Assembly (NCBI GenBank): GCA_964447315.1
Contig: CAYURQ010000001.1
Location: forward strand, 27,351 to 91,350
Length of the DNA: 64,000 nt
Direction: 5' to 3'
DNA from: Candidatus Woesearchaeota archaeon
Lineage (GTDB): Archaea; Nanobdellota; Nanobdellia; Pacearchaeales; GW2011-AR1
Shown here in pieces: positions 3,983 to 42,445 of the stretch (its first letter is position 1; each line of letters begins with the position of its first letter). The notes under the pieces are model-generated. The model did not search any database and was not told the origin of the DNA. It worked only from the letters and a program-made list of their open reading frames with translations. The position numbers and the translations under genes were made by a program.

Positions 3983-6900
3983 ATGAACAAGCCAATAAGA
4001 AAAAGAATAAAGAGTTTGAATTTTAGCTTACTTAGCCCTGAGCAAGTTAAGAAATTAAGCTCAGCAAAAATAGTTACTCCTGAACTTTATGATATTGATG
4101 GTTATCCAGTTGATGGAGGGTTAATGGATTTAAGGTTAGGCGCTGTAGACCCTGGTGTTAGATGTAGAACTTGTGGTGGAAGAATTAAGGAATGTTTAGG
4201 ACATCCAGGAAGTATTGACATGGCAAGAGCTGTTATTCACTTGAAATATATTCCTTTAATTGAAATGTGCTTAAGATGTTTTTGCCAAGATTGTGGAAAA
4301 TTAATGCTATCTGAGAAAGATATGGAAAAATATAGTGCAAGTCAAAGAGCTAAGAAAGCAAAAGACTCAAAGAAATGTCCTCATTGTCAAGCTTCTCAGG
4401 AAAAAATGAAGTTAGATAAACCAACAAGTTTTTATAAAGGTAAAACAAGAATTTTTCCAACTGAAATTAGAGAGATGCTTGTTAATATTCCTAATGAAGA
4501 ATTAGAAAAAGTTGGAGTTAATTGTAAAACTTCAAGACCTGAGTGGGCTGTCATTACTTCATTATTAGTTCCGCCTGTAACAGTTAGGCCTAGTATTATC
4601 TTGGAAACAGGAGAACGTTCAGAGGATGATTTAACACATAAACTTTCAGATATTATTAGAGCTAATCAAAGACTTTGGGAAAATTTAAATGCTGGTGCTC
4701 CAGAAGTTATTATTGAGGATTTGTGGGATTTACTGCAATTTCATGTAACAACTTTCTTTGATAATACAGTTACTAGAATTCCACCTGCTAGGCACAGAAG
4801 TGGACAACCACTTAAGACTATAACTGAAAGAATTAAAGGTAAAGAAGGAAGAATTAGAAAAAATATTGCTGGTAAGAGAGTAAATTATTCTGGTAGAACA
4901 GTTATTTCTCCTGATCCATTTATTGGAATTAATGAAGTTGGAGTTCCTTATGAAATTGCAAAAGTAGTTACAGTTGCTGAAACAGTTAATGATTTAAACA
5001 TCAAAAAATTAAAAAAATTGATTCAAAAAGGTAGTGAATATCCTGGTTCTAGTTATGTTATTAGACCAGATGGAAAAAGAAAGAAAGTTACTGAAGAACT
5101 TAAAGAAGAGATAATTTCTGAATTGGCTCCGGGGTATAAAGTTGAAAGACATTTACAAGAAGGAGATGTTGTTTTATTTAATAGGCACCCAAGCCTTCAT
5201 AGAGGAAGTTTAATGGCTCATTTTGTTAGAGTTTTACCTGGTAGAACTTTCCGTATGCATCCTTCTGCTGCTGCACCATATAATGCTGATTACGATGGAG
5301 ATGAAATGAATATTCATAGCCCTCAAAATGAAGAAGCACGTGCAGAAGCTAAAATTTTACTTGATGTTAAAAAAAATTTAATGTCCCCAAAAAATAATAC
5401 TAACTTGGTTGGAAGTATTAAAGATTCTAACACTGGAAATTATTTATTAGGACTAGATGAATTTACTTCAGATGAAGCAAATCAATTATTTTATTATTCT
5501 GGAATTGATGCTTATGCATCAAAGAAACATATAACAGGATTTGAACTATTTTCAGAAATTTTTCCAAAAAGTGTTAATTTCAAGAATGATTCAATCACAA
5601 TAAAAGATGGGGTTGTTGAAAAAGGTGTTATTGATAAAACTACTTTTGGAGATGAAGATGGTGATTTAGTTAAGGTTTTAGATAATACTCTTGGTAGAGA
5701 TGAAACTTTCAAAATTTTAAAGAATGCTTTTGATTTAGGAAAGAATCATATTACTAATAGAGGAATTACAATTTCAGTTAATGATTTGGATTTAAGAAAA
5801 GATGTTATTGAAATGGGTGAAGAGATAATTAAGAAATCAGAAAAGAAAACTCAAGATTTAATTAATTCTTATAATGATGGAACTTTAGAAATTATTCCTG
5901 GTAAAACATTAGAGGAGTCTAGAGAGCTGAAAATTGTTCAGACATTGAATGAAGTAAGAACGAAGATTGGTGAAATTGTTAGGAGAGAATATCCTAAAAC
6001 TAATCCTGTAAATCATATGATTAGATCAGGTGGTGGAGGTAATATACTTAATGTAACTCAGATGGCTTCATGTGTTGGACAGCAAGCATTCATGGGGGGA
6101 AGAATCAATATTGGGTATAATGGAAGAACTTTATCATTATTCAAACCAGGAGATTTAAGTCCTGAAGCTCATGGATTTATTAAAAGTTCTTTTATTAAAG
6201 GATTAAGACCAGATGAATTCTTTTTCCAGGCTGTTACTGGAAGAGACTCACTTATGGATACTGGTTTAAGAACTCCAAAATCAGGCTATTTATATAGGAG
6301 ATTAGCAAATGCTCTTCAAGATTTAAGAGTGGAATATGACGGAACAATTAGAGACAGCAATAATAATATTATTGAATTCTTATTTGGAGATGATGGAATA
6401 GATGTTTCAAAAATGCATACTAAAGGAAAACTTGACAGTGGAGAAGCAATTGGAATTGTTACTGCTCAGAGTTTTGGTGAAAGTTCGACACAGATGGTTC
6501 TTAATACATTCCATATGGCTGGTGTAGCTGAAATGCAGGTTACTTCTGGTTTACCAAGATTAATTGAAATTTTTGATGCTAGAAAAACACCTTCTTCACC
6601 AAAAATGGAAATTTTCTTAAATAAAGAATATAATGATGAGAAAAATGCAAGAATATTTGCTGAAAAAATAAAAGAAATTACCCTTAAAGAAATTGCTTCT
6701 GAGATTAATTTAGATTTTGGAAATAAAAAAATTGAGATTGTTATTGATAAACAAGGATTAAGACAAACACATTCAAGTGTTAAAACAATTGTTGATAGAT
6801 TAAAGGATTTACACTTTAAAGCTAAGGATAAAGGGGATTTAATACAATTAGATGCAGGGGATATGAATTTCAGAGAAATTTATAAACTTAAAGAAAAACT

Positions 6901-31535: not shown

Positions 31536-31832
31536 TTATTCTTCATCTTCCTCAAGAACTAGTAAACTAAGTAAAACAATTAATACTCCTGCTATTATAG
31601 AAATTACCCAGCTTAGCCAACCTAACTCTAGAGTCTTAAACTTAATTATTAAAAAACCTGCAATACCAAGCAATCCTATGAATATATAATCTTTTCGTAT
31701 TTTTTCTTTGATAATTGGGGCGTGTTCTGAAAATACATCAAGAATTCCAGTAACAATTACAACAACCAATAATATATTTAAGTTAAGATAAGTGCTAACA
31801 AGTCCTGCCCATATTTGTTCAATCAATAACAA
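31536..31832 (-). CDS. 3-TM small membrane protein, copy 1 of 4
   Basis: near-identical copies at 33542, 36225 and 38237; a divergent relative at 44150. Confidence 0.5.
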   Translation of the reverse strand: MLLIEQIWAGLVSTYLNLNILLVVVIVTGILDVFSEHAPIIKEKIRKDYIFIGLLGIAGFLIIKFKTLELGWLSWVISIIAGVLIVLLSLLVLEEDEE

Positions 31833-31873
31833 TATTAGATAAGTTACTAAGACTGTTTGAAAGATGTGATTTA

Positions 31874-31908
31874 CTAGGGATGCGTTGTGTCTGTGGAAAA
31901 GGGAAAAG
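31874..31908 (+). repeat. G/T-rich element variant CTAGGGATGCGTTGTGTCTGTGGAAAAGGGAAAAG
   Basis: 5' region of the membrane-protein gene; related to 33886..33949. Confidence 0.35.
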
Positions 31909-31937
31909 TTTATAGAATTTTAAATTATTATTAAAAC

Positions 31938-32324
31938 ATGGAAGAAAGAGATGTAATAATTAAGATTTATGATAAAAAAGAAGAAATTAATAAAATAATT
32001 AAAGAATTAAAAAAATATTCATTTGAAGATTACATTAAAACTGGCCATTATGAAATTTCTTTATTAACTAAAGGAACAGATGAAGATAAATTGAGAGAGA
32101 TTTATCCTAAATTTGATATTATAGAATTAATAGCATTGAGGAGGCATAAAAATGGTTATGAGAATTATGATGTTTATTATGAACTTGAAAAAGGAAATTA
32201 TGCTTTGTTTGCCATAAATCTAGAAGGTAAAAAACCTAAAATAGATAATGCATTTATAGCTAATAGAATATTCAAAAATTTCTTAAAATCTATGGTAAAA
32301 AGATATGGTAATAAAATGGTTTAA
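31938..32324 (+). CDS. hypothetical protein (128 aa)
   Basis: duplicated at 36633. Confidence 0.45.
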   Translation: MEERDVIIKIYDKKEEINKIIKELKKYSFEDYIKTGHYEISLLTKGTDEDKLREIYPKFDIIELIALRRHKNGYENYDVYYELEKGNYALFAINLEGKKPKIDNAFIANRIFKNFLKSMVKRYGNKMV

Positions 32325-32656
32325 TTAGTCATGCATTGCATAGGTATATTTGCTATAGGAATTTGTTTTATTCCTGCTTTTTCATCTTCTAATCCCACCC
32401 CAATAAATAATTGATCTCTGCTTGGTTTTACAATAAGATTTAATTTTTCAAAGTCTTTTATTTGTTGTATATTAAACCCTATTGCCTCAAGAAAATTAGA
32501 AAACTCTCTTACTTCTAAACTAACTACTTTTCCGTTTCCAGTAGTGCTAATAATAAAATCTCCAAAGCTAAAATTCTTCTTAACTTTCTCATTATCTTGA
32601 ATAGAAGCCACAATTAAGCTGTCTGTATTCTCATCATATTTAGAGACTTTTATCAT
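32321..32656 (-). CDS. DUF2283-like small protein (111 aa)
   Basis: N-term MIKVSKYDENTDSLIVAS resembles DUF2283 (MKI.YD.EADALYIRL). Confidence 0.35.
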   Translation of the reverse strand: MIKVSKYDENTDSLIVASIQDNEKVKKNFSFGDFIISTTGNGKVVSLEVREFSNFLEAIGFNIQQIKDFEKLNLIVKPSRDQLFIGVGLEDEKAGIKQIPIANIPMQCMTN

Positions 32657-32756
32657 ATTTTATAATAATATTTTGTTTATTTATACCTTTCTATTCATCT
32701 TCTAGAGGCAAGTAAAACATATAAATCTTAATAAATAATTAAAACTCCTTTTCTTA

Positions 32757-33545
32757 ATGGGAATTGATTCATCTGAAGCAAATCAAATAATAAACGCTAT
32801 TGATTTTGTAAATCATCATTATGGAGGTTCTGCAAAAGTTACTGGAGAATTCTTTTGTAAAGACTGTAATGAGAAATTTCCTTCTGGAGAATTTCGTTAT
32901 GATAAAGGAGGGTATATTCCAGGGCCAGGTTTAATTAATTTGTCTTCTGAAAGGGCTGCATTTCCCCTTCATGAGTTTCATACTGTTCTTGCTTTAAAAG
33001 ATTCTGATGAGATCTATGAAAAAAGAGTGATTTTAGACTTATTTAATAAATCAAGAAACTGGAATTTTTATGATGTTCCAGAAAGATGCTTTGAGGATTA
33101 TATGAAAATAATGAAAACAAGCTCACTAATTTCTATTGCTAGTCTAGAAGCTAATCATTGGTGTTATTCACTTCATTCAACACCAGATTTTACAGAAGAA
33201 GAAATGCTGGAGGATCCTATTAAAAGGGATATTCTAGAAATGGATAGGAAGATTAATCTTAGGCCAAATAAATTAGAAAATGAGGTTAAACCAGAAATAA
33301 ATCGGGTTTTCAAAGACATAATTGGTAATAGAGAAATTCCAATAATTTATATTATTCCAGAAGAATTTAGAGGAGATTTTGGAGAGGAATATTATAAAAG
33401 GGATTTTATTGAAGCAACATACAATACTTTTAAAGCAAAGAACATACTTTTTCCAGATGAAAAAAGAAATTCTGTTATTAAAATAATTGATTCTTACTTT
33501 AAAGAAGCAGAATTAAAGCATGAAAGACACCCTTCTCCTTTTTAG
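32757..33545 (+). CDS. hypothetical protein (262 aa)
   Basis: duplicated at 37452. Confidence 0.45.
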   Translation: MGIDSSEANQIINAIDFVNHHYGGSAKVTGEFFCKDCNEKFPSGEFRYDKGGYIPGPGLINLSSERAAFPLHEFHTVLALKDSDEIYEKRVILDLFNKSRNWNFYDVPERCFEDYMKIMKTSSLISIASLEANHWCYSLHSTPDFTEEEMLEDPIKRDILEMDRKINLRPNKLENEVKPEINRVFKDIIGNREIPIIYIIPEEFRGDFGEEYYKRDFIEATYNTFKAKNILFPDEKRNSVIKIIDSYFKEAELKHERHPSPF

Positions 33546-33844
33546 GATTCTTCATCCTCTTCTAAAACAAGTAAACTAAGTAAAACAATTAATACTCCTG
33601 CAACAAGAGATATTACCCATGACAACCATCCTAATTCTAGTGTTTTAAACTTGATTATCAGGAAACCTGCAATACCAAGCAATCCTATAAATATGTAATC
33701 TTTAGGTTTTATTTTTTCTTTAATAATTGGAGCGTGTTCTGAAAATACATCAAGAATTCCAGTAACAATTACAACAACTAATAAGATATTTAAGTTAAGA
33801 TAAGTGCTAACAAGTCCTGCCCATATTTGCTCAATTAATAACAA
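33542..33844 (-). CDS. 3-TM small membrane protein, copy 2 of 4
   Basis: ~90% identical to copy 1. Confidence 0.5.
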   Translation of the reverse strand: MLLIEQIWAGLVSTYLNLNILLVVVIVTGILDVFSEHAPIIKEKIKPKDYIFIGLLGIAGFLIIKFKTLELGWLSWVISLVAGVLIVLLSLLVLEEDEES

Positions 33845-33885
33845 TATTAGATAAGTTACTAAGACTGTTTGAAAGGTGTGATTTA

Positions 33886-33949
33886 CTAGGGATGTGTTGT
33901 GTCCACGGAATAGGAGGTGTTGGAGTGAGGGTTTGGGAATGTTGATAGG
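33886..33949 (+). repeat. G/T-rich element (GGGTTGGAATGTTGATAGG subfamily)
   Basis: shares GGGTT(T)GG(G)AAT(A)TGTTGATAGGAT with 58344..58409 and 59472..59524. Confidence 0.4.
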
Positions 33950-33960
33950 ATTATTTTAAT

Positions 33961-34602
33961 TTATATAGAAGAATTAATATCTCCATGCACTACTAATGAT
34001 TGATAATTTTCAAATAAGAAAGGGGCATAAAATTGGGCTTCTGGAAAATCTTTAGTTGTACTTAGATACCAAATATTCTCTTCCATTTTATCTTTAGCTC
34101 TTTCAACTGACTTTTCTATAGTAGAACCTTCTATTAATGCTTTAACAAGGATATTTGAGGGTTCTAAAAATAATTTTGCTATTTTATCTCTTCTTGGAGA
34201 TGCCTCCTGATTAGGATCTTTCCCAAGATTAAAATCTCTCTCATATCCAATAAAACAAATGGCTCCTTTAGTAACTATTATCTTCCCTAGTTTTTGTCCT
34301 GATGAACAAGTTAGGGAATAAACAACCATGCCTGAAAGAACTTTTGCATTTTCTTTAGAGATTATTATCTCATTTTTATGCCCAGCAATCAAATCAGGAT
34401 TACCATGCCCATTAAACATAATAAAATCTGGTTTTTGCTTTTTTATAATTTTTAAGATTTCTTTTTTATTTGCTTTTTCTCTTTCCCTATTTATTGTTTT
34501 GTTTCCTCTTTCTTTCGAATATTTAACTAATTCTTTACTATAATAATATAAATAAGAGAGGGTCCCATCATGCTCGGGTCTGGAAAAAATAATATTACTC
34601 AT
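33961..34602 (-). CDS. clan CD cysteine peptidase-like protein (minimal caspase/legumain-like fold)
   Basis: hydrophobic strand + His-Gly (FIMFNGHG), then 34 aa later hydrophobic strand + Cys (VVYSLTCSSGQ); this is the His/Cys dyad arrangement of caspase/legumain/gingipain. Confidence 0.45.
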   Translation of the reverse strand: MSNIIFSRPEHDGTLSYLYYYSKELVKYSKERGNKTINREREKANKKEILKIIKKQKPDFIMFNGHGNPDLIAGHKNEIIISKENAKVLSGMVVYSLTCSSGQKLGKIIVTKGAICFIGYERDFNLGKDPNQEASPRRDKIAKLFLEPSNILVKALIEGSTIEKSVERAKDKMEENIWYLSTTKDFPEAQFYAPFLFENYQSLVVHGDINSSI

Positions 34603-34604
34603 AA

Positions 34605-34841
34605 TTATTGTTTTACTAAAAAACCTCTTTTGAAAGCTTTAAGATAGTTTAATTGGATTTCAACTATTCTATTTCCAATATCTGTATTATCTTCTATGTT
34701 TTTTATCAACTCATCTCTTTTCATAAATTTTCCATCAGACATTCCAAATGAAACACTTACATTTGGGGAAGCCTGCCTAATTCTTTCTATGACTATTTCT
34801 TTCTTTAACTGATCTATATTCTCTTGTTTATTTTCTTTCAT
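34605..34841 (-). CDS. hypothetical protein (78 aa), operon member
   Basis: stop 3 nt before the peptidase-like gene start. Confidence 0.4.
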   Translation of the reverse strand: MKENKQENIDQLKKEIVIERIRQASPNVSVSFGMSDGKFMKRDELIKNIEDNTDIGNRIVEIQLNYLKAFKRGFLVKQ

Positions 34842-35020
34842 ATTATTTCTAACTCTTTTAGTATTTTTAATATTTTCTCTCCATTTTCTGTCTTATTCTT
34901 TATTTCTTGGTAAGCAAGATTCCAACTTATTGGATTTTTATCTATAATTACTATTGTATTGTTTCTTTCTTTTATAGGCACTCCAGAATAAACTTTAAAG
35001 AAATCTTCTTCATTTACCAT
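34838..35020 (-). CDS. hypothetical protein (60 aa), first gene of operon
   Basis: 4-nt overlap with the next gene. Confidence 0.35.
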   Translation of the reverse strand: MVNEEDFFKVYSGVPIKERNNTIVIIDKNPISWNLAYQEIKNKTENGEKILKILKELEII

Positions 35021-35203
35021 TATTAAATTAGTAAATTAATCTTTTTAATTTTTGTCATTTCTTTTTCCTCGGCTTATTCCAATAAGGACTTTGGGGTTTC
35101 ATGAAACACTGAAGAGAAAAGGATATTTAAATGCTGTTTTTTGGAGTGTGGGTAAAACAATTCATCTTAATCTATATATTTTTTAATTAATGATTCTATA
35201 ATT

Positions 35204-35464
35204 TTAATTATACACTTTATCTCTTTTATCAATTTTTACTATCAAAATTATTTTCTGAGCTTCTTTAATTTTATATAATGCTCTAAAGTACCCAATTCTA
35301 TACCTAAAAACCATCTCATTATTATCTCTCCCAATAAACTTTGAATCACTTGGTACAGGAGTATTTTCAAGGTTTTTTAATCTCTTTTCAATCCTTTCTC
35401 TTTCTTTGGTATCTAATTTGTTTAAAAAATCCTGGGCTTTAACAGACAGCTCTACAGAATACAT
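35204..35464 (-). CDS. relE: RelE/ParE-family toxin
   Basis: MYSVELSVKAQDFLNKLDTKERERIEKRLKNLENTP...FRYRIGYFRALYKI...IILIVKIDKRDKVY matches the RelE/ParE consensus throughout. Confidence 0.75.
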   Translation of the reverse strand: MYSVELSVKAQDFLNKLDTKERERIEKRLKNLENTPVPSDSKFIGRDNNEMVFRYRIGYFRALYKIKEAQKIILIVKIDKRDKVYN

Positions 35465-35465
35465 T

Positions 35466-35627
35466 TTACAGTCTCTTTGTTCTGCCTTCTTTTAAATCTT
35501 CTTCAGCTTGATTTAAAGAGTTTATGTCGTCTTGGGTTAGAGTTACATCTATTATGTGCTCCTTTAAAGAATCCATATCTTTTTTTAAATTGTCTAGTTT
35601 ACTTATGATTAATTCTTCGTTTTCCAT
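35466..35627 (-). CDS. putative antitoxin (53 aa, not in the supplied ORF track)
   Basis: MENEELIISKLDNLKKDMDSLKEHIIDVTLTQDDINSLNQAEEDLKEGRTKRL; stop 1 nt before the relE start. Confidence 0.5.
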   Translation of the reverse strand: MENEELIISKLDNLKKDMDSLKEHIIDVTLTQDDINSLNQAEEDLKEGRTKRL

Positions 35628-35677
35628 ATCTTCCAATATAAAAATAACTATATAATCTTTTCGTATTTTTTATTTTT

Positions 35678-35715
35678 CATAAGGGGTGTTGGTTGGAGCA
35701 TTTTAGGGAGTATTG
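35678..35715 (+). repeat. G/T-rich boundary element CATAAGGGGTGTTGGTTGGAGCATTTTAGGGAGTATTG
   Basis: marks the end of duplicated unit 1; recurs at 40373, 41489 and 46630. Confidence 0.6.
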
Positions 35716-35781: not shown

Positions 35782-36189
35782 CTACAAAATTTCTTTTAAA
35801 TAATTAGATAAATTTAAATCCCTAATTTCTTGTTTTCTTAACCATTTATAATCTTCATGTTCTTTACTTAACTTAACATTCTCTGGTTTTTCATGAGTTT
35901 TTAATATATATATTATTCTTAAAAGATGAACTTTTTTCCCTTGTTTCTCATATTCTTTACTTAATATTCTATAGATTGAAACTATTTCTGTATCGAGACT
36001 TGTTTCTTCCTTAACTTCTCTAAGTACAGCTTCAGAAGGATCTTCTCCAAATTCAACTCTTCCTCCAGGAATTTCCCATTCTCGAGAACCATCTACTTCT
36101 TTTGAATTTCTTTTAAGAAAAAGAAACTTATCTTGTATCTGAATCAATCCATTTGCTAAAATATTTGTTTTTTTCTTAATTTCTGACAT
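35782..36189 (-). CDS. Nudix hydrolase
   Basis: Nudix box GGRVEFGEDPSEAVLREVKEETSL. Confidence 0.8.
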   Translation of the reverse strand: MSEIKKKTNILANGLIQIQDKFLFLKRNSKEVDGSREWEIPGGRVEFGEDPSEAVLREVKEETSLDTEIVSIYRILSKEYEKQGKKVHLLRIIYILKTHEKPENVKLSKEHEDYKWLRKQEIRDLNLSNYLKEIL

Positions 36190-36224: not shown

Positions 36225-36527
36225 CTAATCTTGTTGTTCACCTTCTTCTAAAACAAGCAAACTAAGTAAAACAATTAATACTCCTGCTATTATAGAAATT
36301 ACCCAGCTTAGCCAACCTAACTCTAGAGTCTTAAACTTAATTATTAAAAAACCTGCAATACCAAGCAATCCTATGAATATATAATCTTTTCGTATTTTTT
36401 CTTTGATAATTGGGGCGTGTTCTGAAAATACATCAAGAATTCCAGTAACAATTACAACAACCAATAATATATTTAAGTTAAGATAAGTGCTAACAAGTCC
36501 TGCCCATATTTGTTCAATCAATAACAA
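36225..36527 (-). CDS. 3-TM small membrane protein, copy 3 of 4
   Basis: C-terminus differs from copy 1 (EEGEQQD vs EEDEE) at the duplication junction. Confidence 0.5.
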   Translation of the reverse strand: MLLIEQIWAGLVSTYLNLNILLVVVIVTGILDVFSEHAPIIKEKIRKDYIFIGLLGIAGFLIIKFKTLELGWLSWVISIIAGVLIVLLSLLVLEEGEQQD

Positions 36528-36632
36528 TATTAGATAAGTTACTAAGACTGTTTGAAAGATGTGATTTACTAGGGATGCGTTGTGTCTGTGGAAAAGGGAA
36601 AAGTTTATAGAATTTTAAATTATTATTAAAAC

Positions 36633-37019
36633 ATGGAAGAAAGAGATGTAATAATTAAGATTTATGATAAAAAAGAAGAAATTAATAAAATAATTAAAGA
36701 ATTAAAAAAATATTCATTTGAAGATTACATTAAAACTGGCCATTATGAAATTTCTTTATTAACTAAAGGAACAGATGAAGATAAATTGAGAGAGATTTAT
36801 CCTAAATTTGATATTATAGAATTAATAGCATTGAGGAGGCATAAAAATGGTTATGAGAATTATGATGTTTATTATGAACTTGAAAAAGGAAATTATGCTT
36901 TGTTTGCCATAAATCTAGAAGGTAAAAAACCTAAAATAGATAATGCATTTATAGCTAATAGAATATTCAAAAATTTCTTAAAATCTATGGTAAAAAGATA
37001 TGGTAATAAAATGGTTTAA
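36633..37019 (+). CDS. hypothetical protein (128 aa), duplicate
   Basis: identical to 31938..32324. Confidence 0.45.
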   Translation: MEERDVIIKIYDKKEEINKIIKELKKYSFEDYIKTGHYEISLLTKGTDEDKLREIYPKFDIIELIALRRHKNGYENYDVYYELEKGNYALFAINLEGKKPKIDNAFIANRIFKNFLKSMVKRYGNKMV

Positions 37020-37351
37020 TTAGTCATGCATTGCATAGGTATATTTGCTATAGGAATTTGTTTTATTCCTGCTTTTTCATCTTCTAATCCCACCCCAATA
37101 AATAATTGATCTCTGCTTGGTTTTACAATAAGATTTAATTTTTCAAAGTCTTTTATTTGTTGTATATTAAACCCTATTGCCTCAAGAAAATTAGAAAACT
37201 CTCTTACTTCTAAACTAACTACTTTTCCGTTTCCAGTAGTGCTAATAATAAAATCTCCAAAGCTAAAATTCTTCTTAACTTTCTCATTATCTTGAATAGA
37301 AGCCACAATTAAGCTGTCTGTATTCTCATCATATTTAGAGACTTTTATCAT
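37016..37351 (-). CDS. DUF2283-like small protein, duplicate
   Basis: identical to 32321..32656. Confidence 0.35.
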   Translation of the reverse strand: MIKVSKYDENTDSLIVASIQDNEKVKKNFSFGDFIISTTGNGKVVSLEVREFSNFLEAIGFNIQQIKDFEKLNLIVKPSRDQLFIGVGLEDEKAGIKQIPIANIPMQCMTN

Positions 37352-37451
37352 ATTTTATAATAATATTTTGTTTATTTATACCTTTCTATTCATCTTCTAG
37401 AGGCAAGTAAAACATATAAATCTTAATAAATAATTAAAACTCCTTTTCTTA

Positions 37452-38240
37452 ATGGGAATTGATTCATCTGAAGCAAATCAAATAATAAACGCTATTGATT
37501 TTGTAAATCATCATTATGGAGGTTCTGCAAAAGTTACTGGAGAATTCTTTTGTAAAGACTGTAATGAGAAATTTCCTTCTGGAGAATTTCGTTATGATAA
37601 AGGAGGGTATATTCCAGGGCCAGGTTTAATTAATTTGTCTTCTGAAAGGGCTGCATTTCCCCTTCATGAGTTTCATACTGTTCTTGCTTTAAAAGATTCT
37701 GATGAGATCTATGAAAAAAGAGTGATTTTAGACTTATTTAATAAATCAAGAAACTGGAATTTTTATGATGTTCCAGAAAGATGCTTTGAGGATTATATGA
37801 AAATAATGAAAACAAGCTCACTAATTTCTATTGCTAGTCTAGAAGCTAATCATTGGTGTTATTCACTTCATTCAACACCAGATTTTACAGAAGAAGAAAT
37901 GCTGGAGGATCCTATTAAAAGGGATATTCTAGAAATGGATAGGAAGATTAATCTTAGGCCAAATAAATTAGAAAATGAGGTTAAACCAGAAATAAATCGG
38001 GTTTTCAAAGACATAATTGGTAATAGAGAAATTCCAATAATTTATATTATTCCAGAAGAATTTAGAGGAGATTTTGGAGAGGAATATTATAAAAGGGATT
38101 TTATTGAAGCAACATACAATACTTTTAAAGCAAAGAACATACTTTTTCCAGATGAAAAAAGAAATTCTGTTATTAAAATAATTGATTCTTACTTTAAAGA
38201 AGCAGAATTAAAGCATGAAAGACACCCTTCTCCTTTTTAG
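37452..38240 (+). CDS. hypothetical protein (262 aa), duplicate
   Basis: identical to 32757..33545. Confidence 0.45.
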   Translation: MGIDSSEANQIINAIDFVNHHYGGSAKVTGEFFCKDCNEKFPSGEFRYDKGGYIPGPGLINLSSERAAFPLHEFHTVLALKDSDEIYEKRVILDLFNKSRNWNFYDVPERCFEDYMKIMKTSSLISIASLEANHWCYSLHSTPDFTEEEMLEDPIKRDILEMDRKINLRPNKLENEVKPEINRVFKDIIGNREIPIIYIIPEEFRGDFGEEYYKRDFIEATYNTFKAKNILFPDEKRNSVIKIIDSYFKEAELKHERHPSPF

Positions 38241-38539
38241 GATTCTTCATCCTCTTCTAAAACAAGTAAACTAAGTAAAACAATTAATACTCCTGCAACA
38301 AGAGATATTACCCATGACAACCATCCTAATTCTAGTGTTTTAAACTTGATTATCAGGAAACCTGCAATACCAAGCAATCCTATAAATATGTAATCTTTAG
38401 GTTTTATTTTTTCTTTAATAATTGGAGCGTGTTCTGAAAATACATCAAGAATTCCAGTAACAATTACAACAACTAATAAGATATTTAAGTTAAGATAAGT
38501 GCTAACAAGTCCTGCCCATATTTGCTCAATTAATAACAA
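38237..38539 (-). CDS. 3-TM small membrane protein, copy 4 of 4
   Basis: identical to 33542..33844. Confidence 0.5.
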   Translation of the reverse strand: MLLIEQIWAGLVSTYLNLNILLVVVIVTGILDVFSEHAPIIKEKIKPKDYIFIGLLGIAGFLIIKFKTLELGWLSWVISLVAGVLIVLLSLLVLEEDEES

Positions 38540-38655
38540 TATTAGATAAGTTACTAAGACTGTTTGAAAGGTGTGATTTACTAGGGATGTGTTGTGTCCA
38601 CGGAATAGGAGGTGTTGGAGTGAGGGTTTGGGAATGTTGATAGGATTATTTTAAT

Positions 38656-39297
38656 TTATATAGAAGAATTAATATCTCCATGCACTACTAATGATTGATA
38701 ATTTTCAAATAAGAAAGGGGCATAAAATTGGGCTTCTGGAAAATCTTTAGTTGTACTTAGATACCAAATATTCTCTTCCATTTTATCTTTAGCTCTTTCA
38801 ACTGACTTTTCTATAGTAGAACCTTCTATTAATGCTTTAACAAGGATATTTGAGGGTTCTAAAAATAATTTTGCTATTTTATCTCTTCTTGGAGATGCCT
38901 CCTGATTAGGATCTTTCCCAAGATTAAAATCTCTCTCATATCCAATAAAACAAATGGCTCCTTTAGTAACTATTATCTTCCCTAGTTTTTGTCCTGATGA
39001 ACAAGTTAGGGAATAAACAACCATGCCTGAAAGAACTTTTGCATTTTCTTTAGAGATTATTATCTCATTTTTATGCCCAGCAATCAAATCAGGATTACCA
39101 TGCCCATTAAACATAATAAAATCTGGTTTTTGCTTTTTTATAATTTTTAAGATTTCTTTTTTATTTGCTTTTTCTCTTTCCCTATTTATTGTTTTGTTTC
39201 CTCTTTCTTTCGAATATTTAACTAATTCTTTACTATAATAATATAAATAAGAGAGGGTCCCATCATGCTCGGGTCTGGAAAAAATAATATTACTCAT
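38656..39297 (-). CDS. clan CD cysteine peptidase-like protein, duplicate
   Basis: identical to 33961..34602. Confidence 0.45.
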   Translation of the reverse strand: MSNIIFSRPEHDGTLSYLYYYSKELVKYSKERGNKTINREREKANKKEILKIIKKQKPDFIMFNGHGNPDLIAGHKNEIIISKENAKVLSGMVVYSLTCSSGQKLGKIIVTKGAICFIGYERDFNLGKDPNQEASPRRDKIAKLFLEPSNILVKALIEGSTIEKSVERAKDKMEENIWYLSTTKDFPEAQFYAPFLFENYQSLVVHGDINSSI

Positions 39298-39299
39298 AA

Positions 39300-39536
39300 T
39301 TATTGTTTTACTAAAAAACCTCTTTTGAAAGCTTTAAGATAGTTTAATTGGATTTCAACTATTCTATTTCCAATATCTGTATTATCTTCTATGTTTTTTA
39401 TCAACTCATCTCTTTTCATAAATTTTCCATCAGACATTCCAAATGAAACACTTACATTTGGGGAAGCCTGCCTAATTCTTTCTATGACTATTTCTTTCTT
39501 TAACTGATCTATATTCTCTTGTTTATTTTCTTTCAT
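39300..39536 (-). CDS. hypothetical protein (78 aa), duplicate
   Basis: identical to 34605..34841. Confidence 0.4.
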   Translation of the reverse strand: MKENKQENIDQLKKEIVIERIRQASPNVSVSFGMSDGKFMKRDELIKNIEDNTDIGNRIVEIQLNYLKAFKRGFLVKQ

Positions 39537-39715
39537 ATTATTTCTAACTCTTTTAGTATTTTTAATATTTTCTCTCCATTTTCTGTCTTATTCTTTATTT
39601 CTTGGTAAGCAAGATTCCAACTTATTGGATTTTTATCTATAATTACTATTGTATTGTTTCTTTCTTTTATAGGCACTCCAGAATAAACTTTAAAGAAATC
39701 TTCTTCATTTACCAT
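39533..39715 (-). CDS. hypothetical protein (60 aa), duplicate
   Basis: identical to 34838..35020. Confidence 0.35.
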   Translation of the reverse strand: MVNEEDFFKVYSGVPIKERNNTIVIIDKNPISWNLAYQEIKNKTENGEKILKILKELEII

Positions 39716-39898
39716 TATTAAATTAGTAAATTAATCTTTTTAATTTTTGTCATTTCTTTTTCCTCGGCTTATTCCAATAAGGACTTTGGGGTTTCATGAA
39801 ACACTGAAGAGAAAAGGATATTTAAATGCTGTTTTTTGGAGTGTGGGTAAAACAATTCATCTTAATCTATATATTTTTTAATTAATGATTCTATAATT

Positions 39899-40159
39899 TT
39901 AATTATACACTTTATCTCTTTTATCAATTTTTACTATCAAAATTATTTTCTGAGCTTCTTTAATTTTATATAATGCTCTAAAGTACCCAATTCTATACCT
40001 AAAAACCATCTCATTATTATCTCTCCCAATAAACTTTGAATCACTTGGTACAGGAGTATTTTCAAGGTTTTTTAATCTCTTTTCAATCCTTTCTCTTTCT
40101 TTGGTATCTAATTTGTTTAAAAAATCCTGGGCTTTAACAGACAGCTCTACAGAATACAT
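39899..40159 (-). CDS. relE: RelE/ParE-family toxin, duplicate
   Basis: identical to 35204..35464. Confidence 0.75.
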   Translation of the reverse strand: MYSVELSVKAQDFLNKLDTKERERIEKRLKNLENTPVPSDSKFIGRDNNEMVFRYRIGYFRALYKIKEAQKIILIVKIDKRDKVYN

Positions 40160-40160
40160 T

Positions 40161-40322
40161 TTACAGTCTCTTTGTTCTGCCTTCTTTTAAATCTTCTTCA
40201 GCTTGATTTAAAGAGTTTATGTCGTCTTGGGTTAGAGTTACATCTATTATGTGCTCCTTTAAAGAATCCATATCTTTTTTTAAATTGTCTAGTTTACTTA
40301 TGATTAATTCTTCGTTTTCCAT
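40161..40322 (-). CDS. putative antitoxin (53 aa), duplicate
   Basis: identical to 35466..35627 by the +4695 offset. Confidence 0.5.
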   Translation of the reverse strand: MENEELIISKLDNLKKDMDSLKEHIIDVTLTQDDINSLNQAEEDLKEGRTKRL

Positions 40323-40372
40323 ATCTTCCAATATAAAAATAACTATATAATCTTTTCGTATTTTTTATTTTT

Positions 40373-40436
40373 CATAAGGGGTGTTGGTTGGAGCATTTTA
40401 GGGAGTATTGGGGGAGGAAGGGAAAAGTAGATAAAT
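40373..40436 (+). repeat. G/T-rich boundary element (long form)
   Basis: ...GGAGCATTTTAGGGAGTATTGGGGGAGGAAGGGAAAAGTAGATAAAT; the GGGAAAAGTAGATAAAT tail is shared with 41489..41554. Confidence 0.6.
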
Positions 40437-40591: not shown

Positions 40592-40846
40592 ATGGAACAG
40601 CAATTTATGACAAATAATTCAGATAATTTGCAAGAACTCTTTGATTCTAAAAAAAATGAAGTTGTTTCTCTTTGTAAGGAAGTTGCTGAAAATGAATTTG
40701 ACTTATTTGAATTTAATCTTTTCTTAGCTTCTATGGGGAAGAAAAAATTAGATGAATCTACTAAGAAAGTAAGAGAACTTAGAAAGAAAGTAGATAAAGG
40801 AAAGATTGATTTAACAAAAGACGAAGATATGTTGGATGATTATTAA
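40592..40846 (+). CDS. hypothetical acidic protein (84 aa)
   Basis: ORF only. Confidence 0.35.
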   Translation: MEQQFMTNNSDNLQELFDSKKNEVVSLCKEVAENEFDLFEFNLFLASMGKKKLDESTKKVRELRKKVDKGKIDLTKDEDMLDDY

Positions 40847-41427
40847 TGCCTTTTCTTTTTATTAGAATGTTTATTTTTTGAAAAATTTCTTAACATCTTA
40901 TTTACCTCTTGTTCTGATCCAGGTTCTATAATTGTTGGTACATCCAAATCAATATTTAAATAATTACAAGGATCTTGAAAATCTCTTCTATTATTTGTTG
41001 AGATGCAATTTATTCCAGCAATACAATATACAGATATTATTCTTAAATCATTATCCCCTGCCTTCCAATTATTGTCTTTTCTTTCTGTTTTTAGTTTGTC
41101 AAAAAGTGCATTTACCTTGGCTTGATTTACATCTTTCTTTTTTATGGGTTTTATCCTATTTCTTCTTAAAAAATTAAAGATTTCTCTTTTATTTAATTCT
41201 TTATCTGGATTCTTTTTAGATAACAGATTTAATAATTCACTAAAAACAATATAATTTGTATGAAGAAAATTGCCTCTTTTTGCAATTCTAGGCCTATATC
41301 CCCAAGTTCCTTTTTCATTTTCCATCCAAGAAAAAGAGTTATCTGTATCTAAACCAATTTTTCTTAAAATTTTATTTCTTGCTACAACTCTTTCCATATG
41401 AATAACCTTCTTTTTCTTATTATCCAT
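40843..41427 (-). CDS. hypothetical basic protein (194 aa; start moved to MDNKKKK)
   Basis: the listed N-terminal extension to 41610 is translation of the G/T-rich element. Confidence 0.4.
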   Translation of the reverse strand: MDNKKKKVIHMERVVARNKILRKIGLDTDNSFSWMENEKGTWGYRPRIAKRGNFLHTNYIVFSELLNLLSKKNPDKELNKREIFNFLRRNRIKPIKKKDVNQAKVNALFDKLKTERKDNNWKAGDNDLRIISVYCIAGINCISTNNRRDFQDPCNYLNIDLDVPTIIEPGSEQEVNKMLRNFSKNKHSNKKKRH

Positions 41428-41488
41428 TATTTGTTTAATCAAACTAAATTTAAAAATATATAGCAAGATTAAAGAATTTTTTATTTTC

Positions 41489-41554
41489 CATAGGGGGTGT
41501 TGGTTGGAGCATTTGGGGGAGTGTTTGGAGGGAGAGAGGGAAAAGTAGATAAAT
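41489..41554 (+). repeat. G/T-rich boundary element (long form)
   Basis: CATAGGGGGTGTTGGTTGGAGCATTTGGGGGAGTGTTTGGAGGGAGAGAGGGAAAAGTAGATAAAT. Confidence 0.6.
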
Positions 41555-41575
41555 GTTAAAACAATCTCTTTTTTT

Positions 41576-42445
41576 ATGGAGATTGCATCAGTTATAGAAA
41601 TAGGAAGCAAGTTTTTATCCTATGTTCTTGGGTTTTCAAGCATAGAATCAAATGAGATGGTGTTATACAGAATTCTTGCAGTATTTATTCTTGGTTGGTT
41701 GTGCTTATTTGGTTTTTTAATCATAAGAAAATCAAAATCCTTAAAACATTGGAGAATTCCCCATTTAGTTAGTATTAGTGCCATAATCTTAGTAAGTTCA
41801 GTTGGATTTTTTATTAGTTATATTCTCATATTAAATTTTAATATGTTAATTATTATAACAGAAAATATAAATGAACCAATAAACTTTCTAACAGTACTCT
41901 TTTTTATGATTTTTTACATTTCATTTGGTCTTGATTCAATAAATAAAAAATTAGGGAATGGGGAAAACTCTGAAGAATTAATTCCAAAAGAGGTGGGAAT
42001 CTTTGTCTGGAGATCAATTATGCTTGGATTTGGATTGCTAGTTGTTGTATTGTCCCAATTATTTCTATTAAAATATCTAGGGAGACTTCCTTTTGACTTA
42101 AATGTTTCTCCATCTCCTCCTTGGTTTTATTTAGCTGCGTTTCTTTTCTTTTTTTTAGCTGGAATTCTCCTTTGTTATTTTTCACTTGCAAGAAAAAAAT
42201 CTACTGAATTTTTTAATAAAATGGACAAATTTATGGAAAATAATCTTAGAGTGCCATTCATTTTTATGTTTGTTATTTTCATAATAATATTAATAGATAA
42301 AATAATAAGAAAAGATTCTGATAATTTAATACGTTCAGCTTTTATAAGCGCAGTTTTCTTAGTTATTTCTATTTTTATTAAAAAAATAAATAAGTGGGTA
42401 GTAGATTTTTTGAAAAATCTGGGTACTTTGGAAAAGAAAAAGTAA
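41576..42445 (+). CDS. multi-TM membrane protein (289 aa)
   Basis: several hydrophobic helices. Confidence 0.45.
   Translation: MEIASVIEIGSKFLSYVLGFSSIESNEMVLYRILAVFILGWLCLFGFLIIRKSKSLKHWRIPHLVSISAIILVSSVGFFISYILILNFNMLIIITENINEPINFLTVLFFMIFYISFGLDSINKKLGNGENSEELIPKEVGIFVWRSIMLGFGLLVVVLSQLFLLKYLGRLPFDLNVSPSPPWFYLAAFLFFFLAGILLCYFSLARKKSTEFFNKMDKFMENNLRVPFIFMFVIFIIILIDKIIRKDSDNLIRSAFISAVFLVISIFIKKINKWVVDFLKNLGTLEKKK

Follow-up and report, generated by a model that had tools for sequence, protein, structure and literature searches.

A predicted minimal clan-CD cysteine peptidase and its two small partner genes in DPANN archaea and CPR bacteria

What could a predicted cysteine peptidase of only 213 residues be doing directly behind two genes for proteins of 60 and 78 residues? 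This question is raised by a stretch of 64,000 nucleotides from a Candidatus Woesearchaeota archaeon (assembly GCA_964447315.1, contig CAYURQ010000001.1, positions 27,351 to 91,350 of the forward strand), called the window in the following, which is an archaeal chromosome segment with RpoB, RpoA', aEF-2, aEF-1alpha and SMC. The three genes, named p60, p78 and protease here and referred to together as the trio, form one operon that travels as a unit through DPANN archaea and bacteria that belong to the candidate phyla radiation (CPR), and the third of them is predicted to encode a very small peptidase of clan CD. As to its function, we favour with a probability of roughly 45% a tripartite switch of the toxin-antitoxin or abortive-infection type, in which an active, probably Arg/Lys-directed protease would be controlled by p60 and p78.

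The operon and the predicted fold of its peptidase

An initial annotation, made from the sequence alone, had placed three open reading frames (ORFs) of 60, 78 and 213 amino acids (aa) here, all on the minus strand, and this placement is correct. The operon and the positions discussed below are the following, in coordinates of the window:

34838..35020, minus strand: p60, first gene, 60 aa, matches no known family (ORF plus 56 homologues)
34605..34841, minus strand: p78, second gene, 78 aa
33961..34602, minus strand: protease, third gene, predicted 213-aa stand-alone clan-CD (caspase-haemoglobinase fold) cysteine peptidase
34405..34407, minus strand: codon of the predicted catalytic His66, inside the G65-H66-G67 motif
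34306..34308, minus strand: codon of the predicted catalytic Cys99
34567..34569, minus strand: codon of Asp12, which stands where helix alpha1 begins and is a candidate for the S1-pocket residue that would receive a basic P1 side chain
35041..35053, minus strand: putative archaeal promoter, an A/T-rich TATA-like element 21–33 nucleotides (nt) upstream of the p60 ATG

The genes had been described as overlapping by 4 and 3 nt. The first overlap is indeed present, as p60 and p78 share an ATGA, and the second is not, p78 and protease being separated by a 2-nt spacer (TAA-TT-ATG). TTTAAA/TTTATA-type boxes about 27–36 nt upstream of the p60 ATG recur in many archaeal loci, and the sequence suggests that the trio has its own promoter and a leaderless or short-leader mRNA. 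A scan for sigma-70 promoters and terminators returned fewer sites than shuffled sequences and is uninformative for an archaeon, and neither a tRNA nor an Rfam element was found anywhere in the window. The palindromes GTTTCATGAAAC and CTTATTGGAATAAG of the window were tried as conserved operators and rejected, since they are not kept at other loci, and a compositional anomaly of the trio is ruled out by its GC content, which at 27.7% nearly equals that of the window (27.6%). As all three proteins have conserved homologues, and as almost all of the roughly 120 independent loci preserve the order and orientation of the trio, the arrangement is far beyond chance, and the trio is a real, self-contained three-gene operon.

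The two motifs from which a clan-CD peptidase had been proposed, FIMFNGHG and VVYSLTCSSGQ, are present in the 213-aa protein as residues 60–67 and 93–103, and the spacing between His66 and Cys99, given approximately as 34, was counted as 33 residues. Clan CD is defined by an alpha/beta/alpha sandwich on a b2-b1-b3-b4(-b5-b6) sheet with helices a1-a3, in which the catalytic His stands at the C-terminal end of b3 and the Cys at the C-terminal end of b4 (PMC4357240). The AlphaFold2 model of the protease (pLDDT 96.4, pTM 0.93) has this sandwich, and the element order assigned by DSSP, b1-a1-b2-a2-b3-[two short strands]-a3-b4-a4-b5-...-b6, is the caspase-haemoglobinase topology and no other fold; b3 comprises residues 60–64 with His66 two residues on, and b4 residues 93–97 with Cys99 two residues on. 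The homologues keep the proposed catalytic residues, with Cys99 found in 270 of 270 relatives and His66 in 265 of 269 (three have Tyr and one Gln) and in 100% across 81 loci. Among about 269 relatives G65 and G67 are nearly invariant, D139 is invariant (269/269), and position 12 is Asp or Glu in every one of the 258 relatives compared there. Judged by its model, the 213-aa protein has the fold of a clan-CD cysteine peptidase in minimal form, with an intact, essentially invariant predicted His66/Cys99 dyad.

The initial annotation had called this fold caspase- or legumain-like, of which the clan is retained and the kinship is not. In the fold comparison with the protease model the gingipains RgpB (17.8) and Kgp (17.3) and activated SAVED-CHAT (17.0) scored highest, followed by separases (14.4–12.8), metacaspase-9 (13.5), Craspase TPR-CHAT (13.1) and legumain (13.0), with MALT1, GPI8 and caspases at about 11; the model therefore places gingipain, CHAT and separase as the nearest fold relatives, and not caspase or legumain. 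At the sequence level the only Pfam signal is Peptidase_C25 (PF01364), which spans the His-Cys region (residues 32–103) and with 16.6 bits (E=0.0048) stays below the threshold of 23 bits. Neither a Pfam CHAT (PF12770) match nor a Peptidase_C14 (PF00656) match with a p20/p10 organisation was found, and the protease has no significant match in NCBIfam, PADLOC or PHROGs and no PDB match by profile. Its first strand b1 starts at residue 3, there is no signal peptide, hydrophobic N-terminus or extra domain, and 213 residues are close to the minimum size for the caspase-haemoglobinase fold.

The model also allows a suggestion for the specificity. In RgpB the P1 Arg is bound by Asp163 of helix a1 and by Gly210 and Gly212, which flank the catalytic His, and Asp95 of TbMCA2 occupies the same position as Asp163 (PMC4357240). 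D12 of the protease, at the N-terminus of helix a1, appears to stand at the position described there for these two residues, and G65-H66-G67 is the same motif as Gly210/His/Gly212 (PMC4357240). Because the acidic D12 at the start of alpha1 and the G-H-G motif are both as in gingipain R, we infer that the protease would be catalytically active, as an endopeptidase that prefers Arg/Lys at P1.

Conservation and distribution of the three genes

The trio is more than a local peculiarity. Using a word-indexed search we found 192 relatives of the protease, all of about 213–219 aa and unnamed, and when 1.84 billion cluster representatives were searched exhaustively with HMMER, 1,839 protease clusters (clusters at 50% identity) were obtained at E<=1e-3, of which 782 remained at <=1e-10 and 244 at <=1e-30, a large family that is spread across DPANN and CPR. 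A pattern-limited scan of one genome per GTDB species yielded 80 loci, and all 80 carry a DPANN or CPR label, or a mislabel that was resolved by identity. Among the loci the archaeal labels are Woese-, Pace-, Nano-, Micr-, Aenigmat-, Alti-, Iain- and Nanohal-archaeota, and the bacterial ones Davies-, Shapiro-, Woyke-, Gottesman-, Collier-, Levy-, Woese- and Kuenen-bacteria, Saccharibacteria, Paceibacterota and Microgenomates. Some metagenome-assembled genomes (MAGs) are labelled as uncultured Gammaproteobacteria, Pseudomonadales or Methanosarcinales (L036, L039, L052-L054, L056, L068, L082; L027-L029), and their proteases are 72–92% identical to those of Davies-, Gottesman- or Collier-bacteria or Nanoarchaeota; judging from the sequences, these labels of trio-bearing third party annotation (TPA) assemblies are probably wrong. 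The archaeal and bacterial copies have their nearest relative mostly within their own domain.

The conservation of the 60/78/213 neighbourhood was checked with hidden Markov models (HMMs) of the three proteins, which were run over the ORFs of all loci. The order p60-p78-protease and the common strand are kept in 90–91 of the 92 loci reached via the protease, a contig end and a truncated gene being the exceptions, and the order was also found in 31 of the 41 loci reached independently via p60, of which 7 more end, or probably end, before the protease. The 4-nt ATGA overlap of p60 and p78 is present in 50 of 83 loci, and the junction between p78 and protease mostly lies between -8 and +4 nt. In DPANN archaea and CPR bacteria alike, the three genes are obligately linked and inherited as a single unit.

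Both small proteins have conserved homologues of their own and are conserved along their whole length. Across 81 loci, with protease identities of 31–95%, F7, P15, R19 and W33 of p60 are about 100% conserved and E39 is near-invariant, its length is fixed and its strictly conserved C-terminus ends with L-x-I-I, and in p78 from 81 loci R20, G33 and G56 are invariant or nearly so. For p60 R19 and p78 R20 Lys is the only substitution seen in these loci. Between archaea and bacteria p60 is conserved at E 1e-15 to 1e-22 for 60 aa. A helical fold is predicted for p78, made up of two long terminal helices, a short helix in the middle and a small hairpin. p60 may have an N-terminal segment, a beta-hairpin and a pair of helices connected through a T-x-x-G turn, as its own sequence pattern and a weak local profile match to p78 suggest; when the two proteins were compared as possible paralogues, hhalign aligned only a helix-T-x-x-G-helix motif of 17–22 columns (probability 29–38%). 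Neither p60 nor p78 has a significant match in Pfam, NCBIfam, PDB or PHROGs, broader profiles included. DUF7713 matched p60 weakly (7 of 44 members, E at least 0.014), and in PADLOC-DB v2 the protease and p60 are without a match and p78 gives only noise at E about 0.01.

That this is not a described architecture, as the initial annotation had supposed, agrees with the lack of any significant Pfam, NCBIfam, PADLOC or PHROG match, and no paper describing the trio was found in the open-access literature. The fold class is already known; the protease is a new clan-CD family under the detection limits of existing profiles, it stands in an undescribed obligate three-gene architecture and it is the smallest stand-alone clan-CD form among those compared.

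Variants of the module were found as well. In one population or lineage, represented by 22 contigs from several samples (L107, L136-L141, e.g. L136 2406-3722), a canonical p60 with all its invariant residues precedes an unrelated, tightly coupled pair of 79-aa and 274-aa proteins at a distance of 70 nt, neither of which has a Pfam match, and both p78 and the protease are absent. Thus, p60 can serve another module. In L124 a DUF2283 protein stands in place of the protease. A divergent subfamily (L131, L133-L135 and the virus BK063666) has a protease of 237–248 aa with a C-terminal transmembrane helix, and in L131 (2486-4115) a 97-aa protein that looks like a helix-turn-helix protein and a 52-aa membrane peptide sit between p60 and the p78-like gene.

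A mobile cassette and its possible function

How far the unit extends can be seen from two trios that are 94% identical in their DNA, as the homologous stretch is no longer than 1,183 bp and runs from -50 relative to the p60 ATG to +56 past the protease stop, with unrelated flanks on both sides. DNA similarity between the window and its relatives is likewise confined to a stretch that starts at the p60 ATG and reaches into the protease gene. The trio is a discrete, autonomous, cassette-like mobile unit of about 1.2 kb, whose three proteins are cytosolic and coupled in their translation, and one MAG carries two divergent trios (L061, L078). The immediate neighbours at about 85 loci amount to 150 genes from 117 Pfam families, and there is no conserved fourth gene among them. 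Recurrent themes are RadC/UPF0758, Schlafen/AlbA_2, Pol-beta nucleotidyltransferases with HEPN, NYN, and type I/IIG restriction-modification, and the neighbours matched by PADLOC include AbiEi, AbiO, pAgo-SIR2, Nhi and mad3/mad8. By raw neighbour tallies the trio is often found among toxin-antitoxin and defence genes. It also has the build of a compact toxin-antitoxin operon, with small upstream partners, a downstream effector, junctions of -8 to +4 nt, the 1,183-bp unit and multiple copies, and the abortive-infection or toxin-activation role suggested in the initial annotation fits this genomic context.

Our preference for the switch is based on the architecture, the mobility, the copy-number variation, the neighbourhood and the modular reuse of p60. 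In such a switch p60 and p78 would bind the enzyme and control it, as a trans-encoded inhibitor, pseudosubstrate or substrate and/or as a regulator, which is suggested by their strict co-inheritance and translational coupling and by the precedents of securin and of the RgpB prodomain, whose Arg126 is inserted into the S1 pocket against Asp163 (PMC4357240). Like this Arg, the invariant basic residue of each partner (p60 R19 and p78 R20) could fill the S1 pocket, and a loss or displacement of p60/p78 would free the protease onto cellular or invader targets.

A comparison with known systems shows what is shared and what is not. The gingipains RgpB and Kgp (MEROPS C25, PF01364; PDB 4ief, 4rbm) have, like the protease, the His after beta3 in a G-H-G motif and the Cys after beta4, and in RgpB alpha1 likewise begins with an acidic residue, the Asp163 that binds the P1 Arg. 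However, their identity to the protease is 12–14% and below the Pfam threshold, and they are secreted multidomain zymogens with an N-terminal prodomain, an immunoglobulin-like domain and a type IX secretion system (T9SS) C-terminal domain and without small partner genes, whereas the protease is a cytosolic, stand-alone protein of 213 aa that lacks a signal peptide and these domains and is encoded with two such genes. The CHAT proteases (SAVED-CHAT, 8tl0; Craspase TPR-CHAT/Csx29, 7y83 and 7y9x; the anti-sigma DdvA, 8rot) resemble the trio in being cytosolic, switchable clan-CD effectors with dedicated partners encoded nearby, but they are usually fused to sensors, while the trio protease has no fused SAVED, TPR or transmembrane domain; CRISPR or CBASS genes are not adjacent to the trio and p60/p78 show no similarity to Csx30/Csx31. 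Separase, an Arg-specific clan-CD protease that is held inactive by the small pseudosubstrate securin, would follow the same logic as proposed for p60/p78, although it is a eukaryotic protein of >1,000 aa with large helical regulatory domains and securin has no sequence relationship to p60 or p78. Omega-epsilon-zeta is a tripartite toxin-antitoxin operon in which two small proteins precede a larger enzyme, a kinase. The trio shares with it the gene order, the tight coupling, the self-contained organisation, a small helical middle protein and a patchy occurrence with variable flanks among other toxin-antitoxin modules. This is a likeness of architecture; the effector is a protease instead of a kinase, and no DNA-binding fold was recognised in p60/p78.

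Several observations weigh against the switch. No conserved operator-like palindrome was found upstream of p60 across the loci compared, housekeeping genes such as FtsZ, SecA, RpoB and Lon are many among the neighbours, no relative of the trio was found in IMG/VR (2.9 million contigs, patterns used) or in plasmid collections, and the trio has no PADLOC or PHROG match. In addition, the restriction to CPR/DPANN labels is unusual for toxin-antitoxin or defence modules and the conservation of p60 is above that typical for antitoxins. A more far-reaching proposal, that the trio represents an unrecognised class of conflict systems, in which a minimal caspase-like protease effector is held by two micro-proteins (a split 'prodomain'/pseudosubstrate and a regulator) and which is specific to and exchanged between CPR and DPANN, appears doubtful at present.

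Because of this restricted distribution and the unusually high conservation of p60 across two domains, lifestyle-specific processing stays the principal rival. The trio would then be a housekeeping or maturation system of ultra-small episymbionts and no conflict module, with the protease processing a conserved cellular protein and p60/p78 acting as cofactors, adaptors or substrates. The mostly same-domain nearest relatives of the copies agree with this, as do the core genes among the neighbours and the chromosomal nature of the window itself, but a housekeeping system would hardly be expected to differ in its flanks even at 94% nucleotide identity, to vary in copy number with divergent paralogues within one MAG, to occur in degenerate versions (the protease replaced in L124, p60 with other genes in L107) or to be frequently located among toxin-antitoxin and defence genes. 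Its patchiness within CPR classes, with e.g. only two Saccharibacteria loci, is a weak argument in the same direction as the scan was pattern-limited. Overall we consider such a role unlikely, if the most serious of the rivals.

It could also be that p60 and/or p78 are precursors, from which cleavage or ligation by the clan-CD enzyme yields the active product, for instance a modified protein or a peptide used in signalling or antagonism, with legumain-type ligases and the transamidases GPI8 and PorU as models. One invariant basic residue per small protein and the strictly conserved C-terminal end of p60 would suit this idea. It is nevertheless quite improbable, as p60 and p78 are conserved over their full length and p78 is predicted to be folded, unlike leader/core precursors with variable cores, and as the cassette contains no export signal, transporter or modification enzyme.

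The only link to viruses is found in the circular Methanofastidiosa virus BK063666 (L093 3600-4543), which encodes a distant, 248-aa protease homologue with a C-terminal membrane anchor in a two-gene version; the ORF ahead of it encodes 66 aa and contains a T-x-x-G helix motif like that of p78. This could mean that the trio is of viral origin or acts against host defence, being carried by DPANN/CPR viruses and chromosomal only as prophage cargo, but the similarity of the 66-aa ORF to p78 is not significant (P=0.048), no relative was found in the IMG/VR contigs with the patterns used, 50,697 phage records gave one partial match and plasmids none, PHROGs gave no match, and no integrase or structural phage genes are among the top flank families, so that we regard it as very improbable. 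Finally, that the 213-aa protein is a non-catalytic scaffold (a pseudo-protease), as Tyr or Gln in place of His66 in 4 of about 269 relatives might hint, or that the small ORFs are not real genes, is hardly credible in view of the invariant Cys99, the nearly invariant G-H-G, D12 and D139, and the conservation of p60 and p78 at the protein level across two domains with fixed order and coupling.

The duplicated cassette and the place of the trio in CPR and DPANN genomes

In the window the trio is present twice, within the following repeat:

31564..35715: repeat copy 1, 4,152 bp, which contains the trio, a pair of ParE and antitoxin genes, two genes for membrane proteins and three unknown ones
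36259..40410: repeat copy 2, offset 4,695, 0 mismatches over 4,152 bp
38656..39715, minus strand: second identical trio (p60 39533-39715, p78 39300-39536, protease 38656-39297)
31536-31832, 33542-33844, 36225-36527 and 38237-38539, all minus strand: four copies of a membrane-type protein of about 100 aa

A duplicated cassette, a RelE module and a multi-copy membrane protein had already been annotated around the trio, and all three are there. The repeat copies are direct and perfect, and their 543-bp spacer carries a NUDIX hydrolase gene (35782-36189). Such a perfect duplication could be a very recent event or an assembly artefact. In an independent Logan assembly of the source sample antitoxin-ParE-p60-p78-protease was recovered on a short contig that breaks at both ends of the trio/ParE block. 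The toxin of the ParE/RelE family (PF05016, E=6e-7) at 35204-35464 adjoins p60 and has a 56-aa ORF upstream. The membrane-type protein has three hydrophobic segments and an acidic tail, occurs as two subtypes with 63% nucleotide identity and belongs to no Pfam family; its four copies interrupt the cassette array at intervals and could serve as anchors for recombination. Between 31938 and 33545 (copy 36633-38240) the repeat also contains orphan genes for a 128-aa, a convergent 111-aa and a 262-aa CxxC-containing protein, all without a Pfam match, the 111-aa one being DUF2283-like by eye only.

Repeat copy 2 is flanked by a gene pair for 84-aa and 255-aa proteins (40592-41610), and at locus L013 a syntenic pair of 85 aa and 162 aa follows directly after the trio (5819-6579). 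In the window the ParE/antitoxin module separates the trio from the 84/255-aa pair, which suggests a toxin-antitoxin insertion into a shared backbone. A 38–69-nt element with the core CATCTCTTTAATTCTCAT occurs six times in L013 (3543-8776), 0.8–1.2 kb apart between small cassettes, both sides of the trio included. It could represent a 5' end that short minus-strand ORFs have in common, or else a promoter or recombination element. Directly beside the trio of L013 (3704-4370), and about 4 kb downstream of the trio in L008 (10782-11451), we also observed a pair of a DUF5678 protein (70–80 aa) and a retropepsin-like aspartic mini-protease (146–151 aa), a second uncharacterised module of a tiny protein and a minimal protease in these DPANN islands. 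Like the trio it combines a tiny upstream protein with a minimal protease, here of about 150 aa, but this is an aspartic and not a clan-CD cysteine protease, the module has two genes instead of three, and DUF5678 has no detectable homology to p60 or p78.

In summary, the trio defines, if nothing more, three new protein families, with about 1,800 enzyme clusters at 50% identity, that are currently annotated as 'hypothetical'. Caspase-type proteases have recently emerged as executioners of prokaryotic immunity, as in Craspase, SAVED-CHAT and gasdermin systems, and to our knowledge these examples are all large or fused to sensor domains. If the more far-reaching proposal of an unrecognised class of conflict systems is correct, no earlier toxin-antitoxin or abortive-infection-type module would have had a clan-CD protease as its toxin, and the trio would rank among the simplest caspase-type switches known. 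With a catalytic core stripped to 213 residues and its control apparently delegated to proteins of 60 and 78 residues, it would also be a tractable minimal model for clan-CD switching. CPR and DPANN are huge and poorly understood radiations that resemble each other in their episymbiotic lifestyle and in which few defence or toxin-antitoxin-like systems have been recognised, and the trio is one of the few well-defined gene modules that are apparently confined to both of them.

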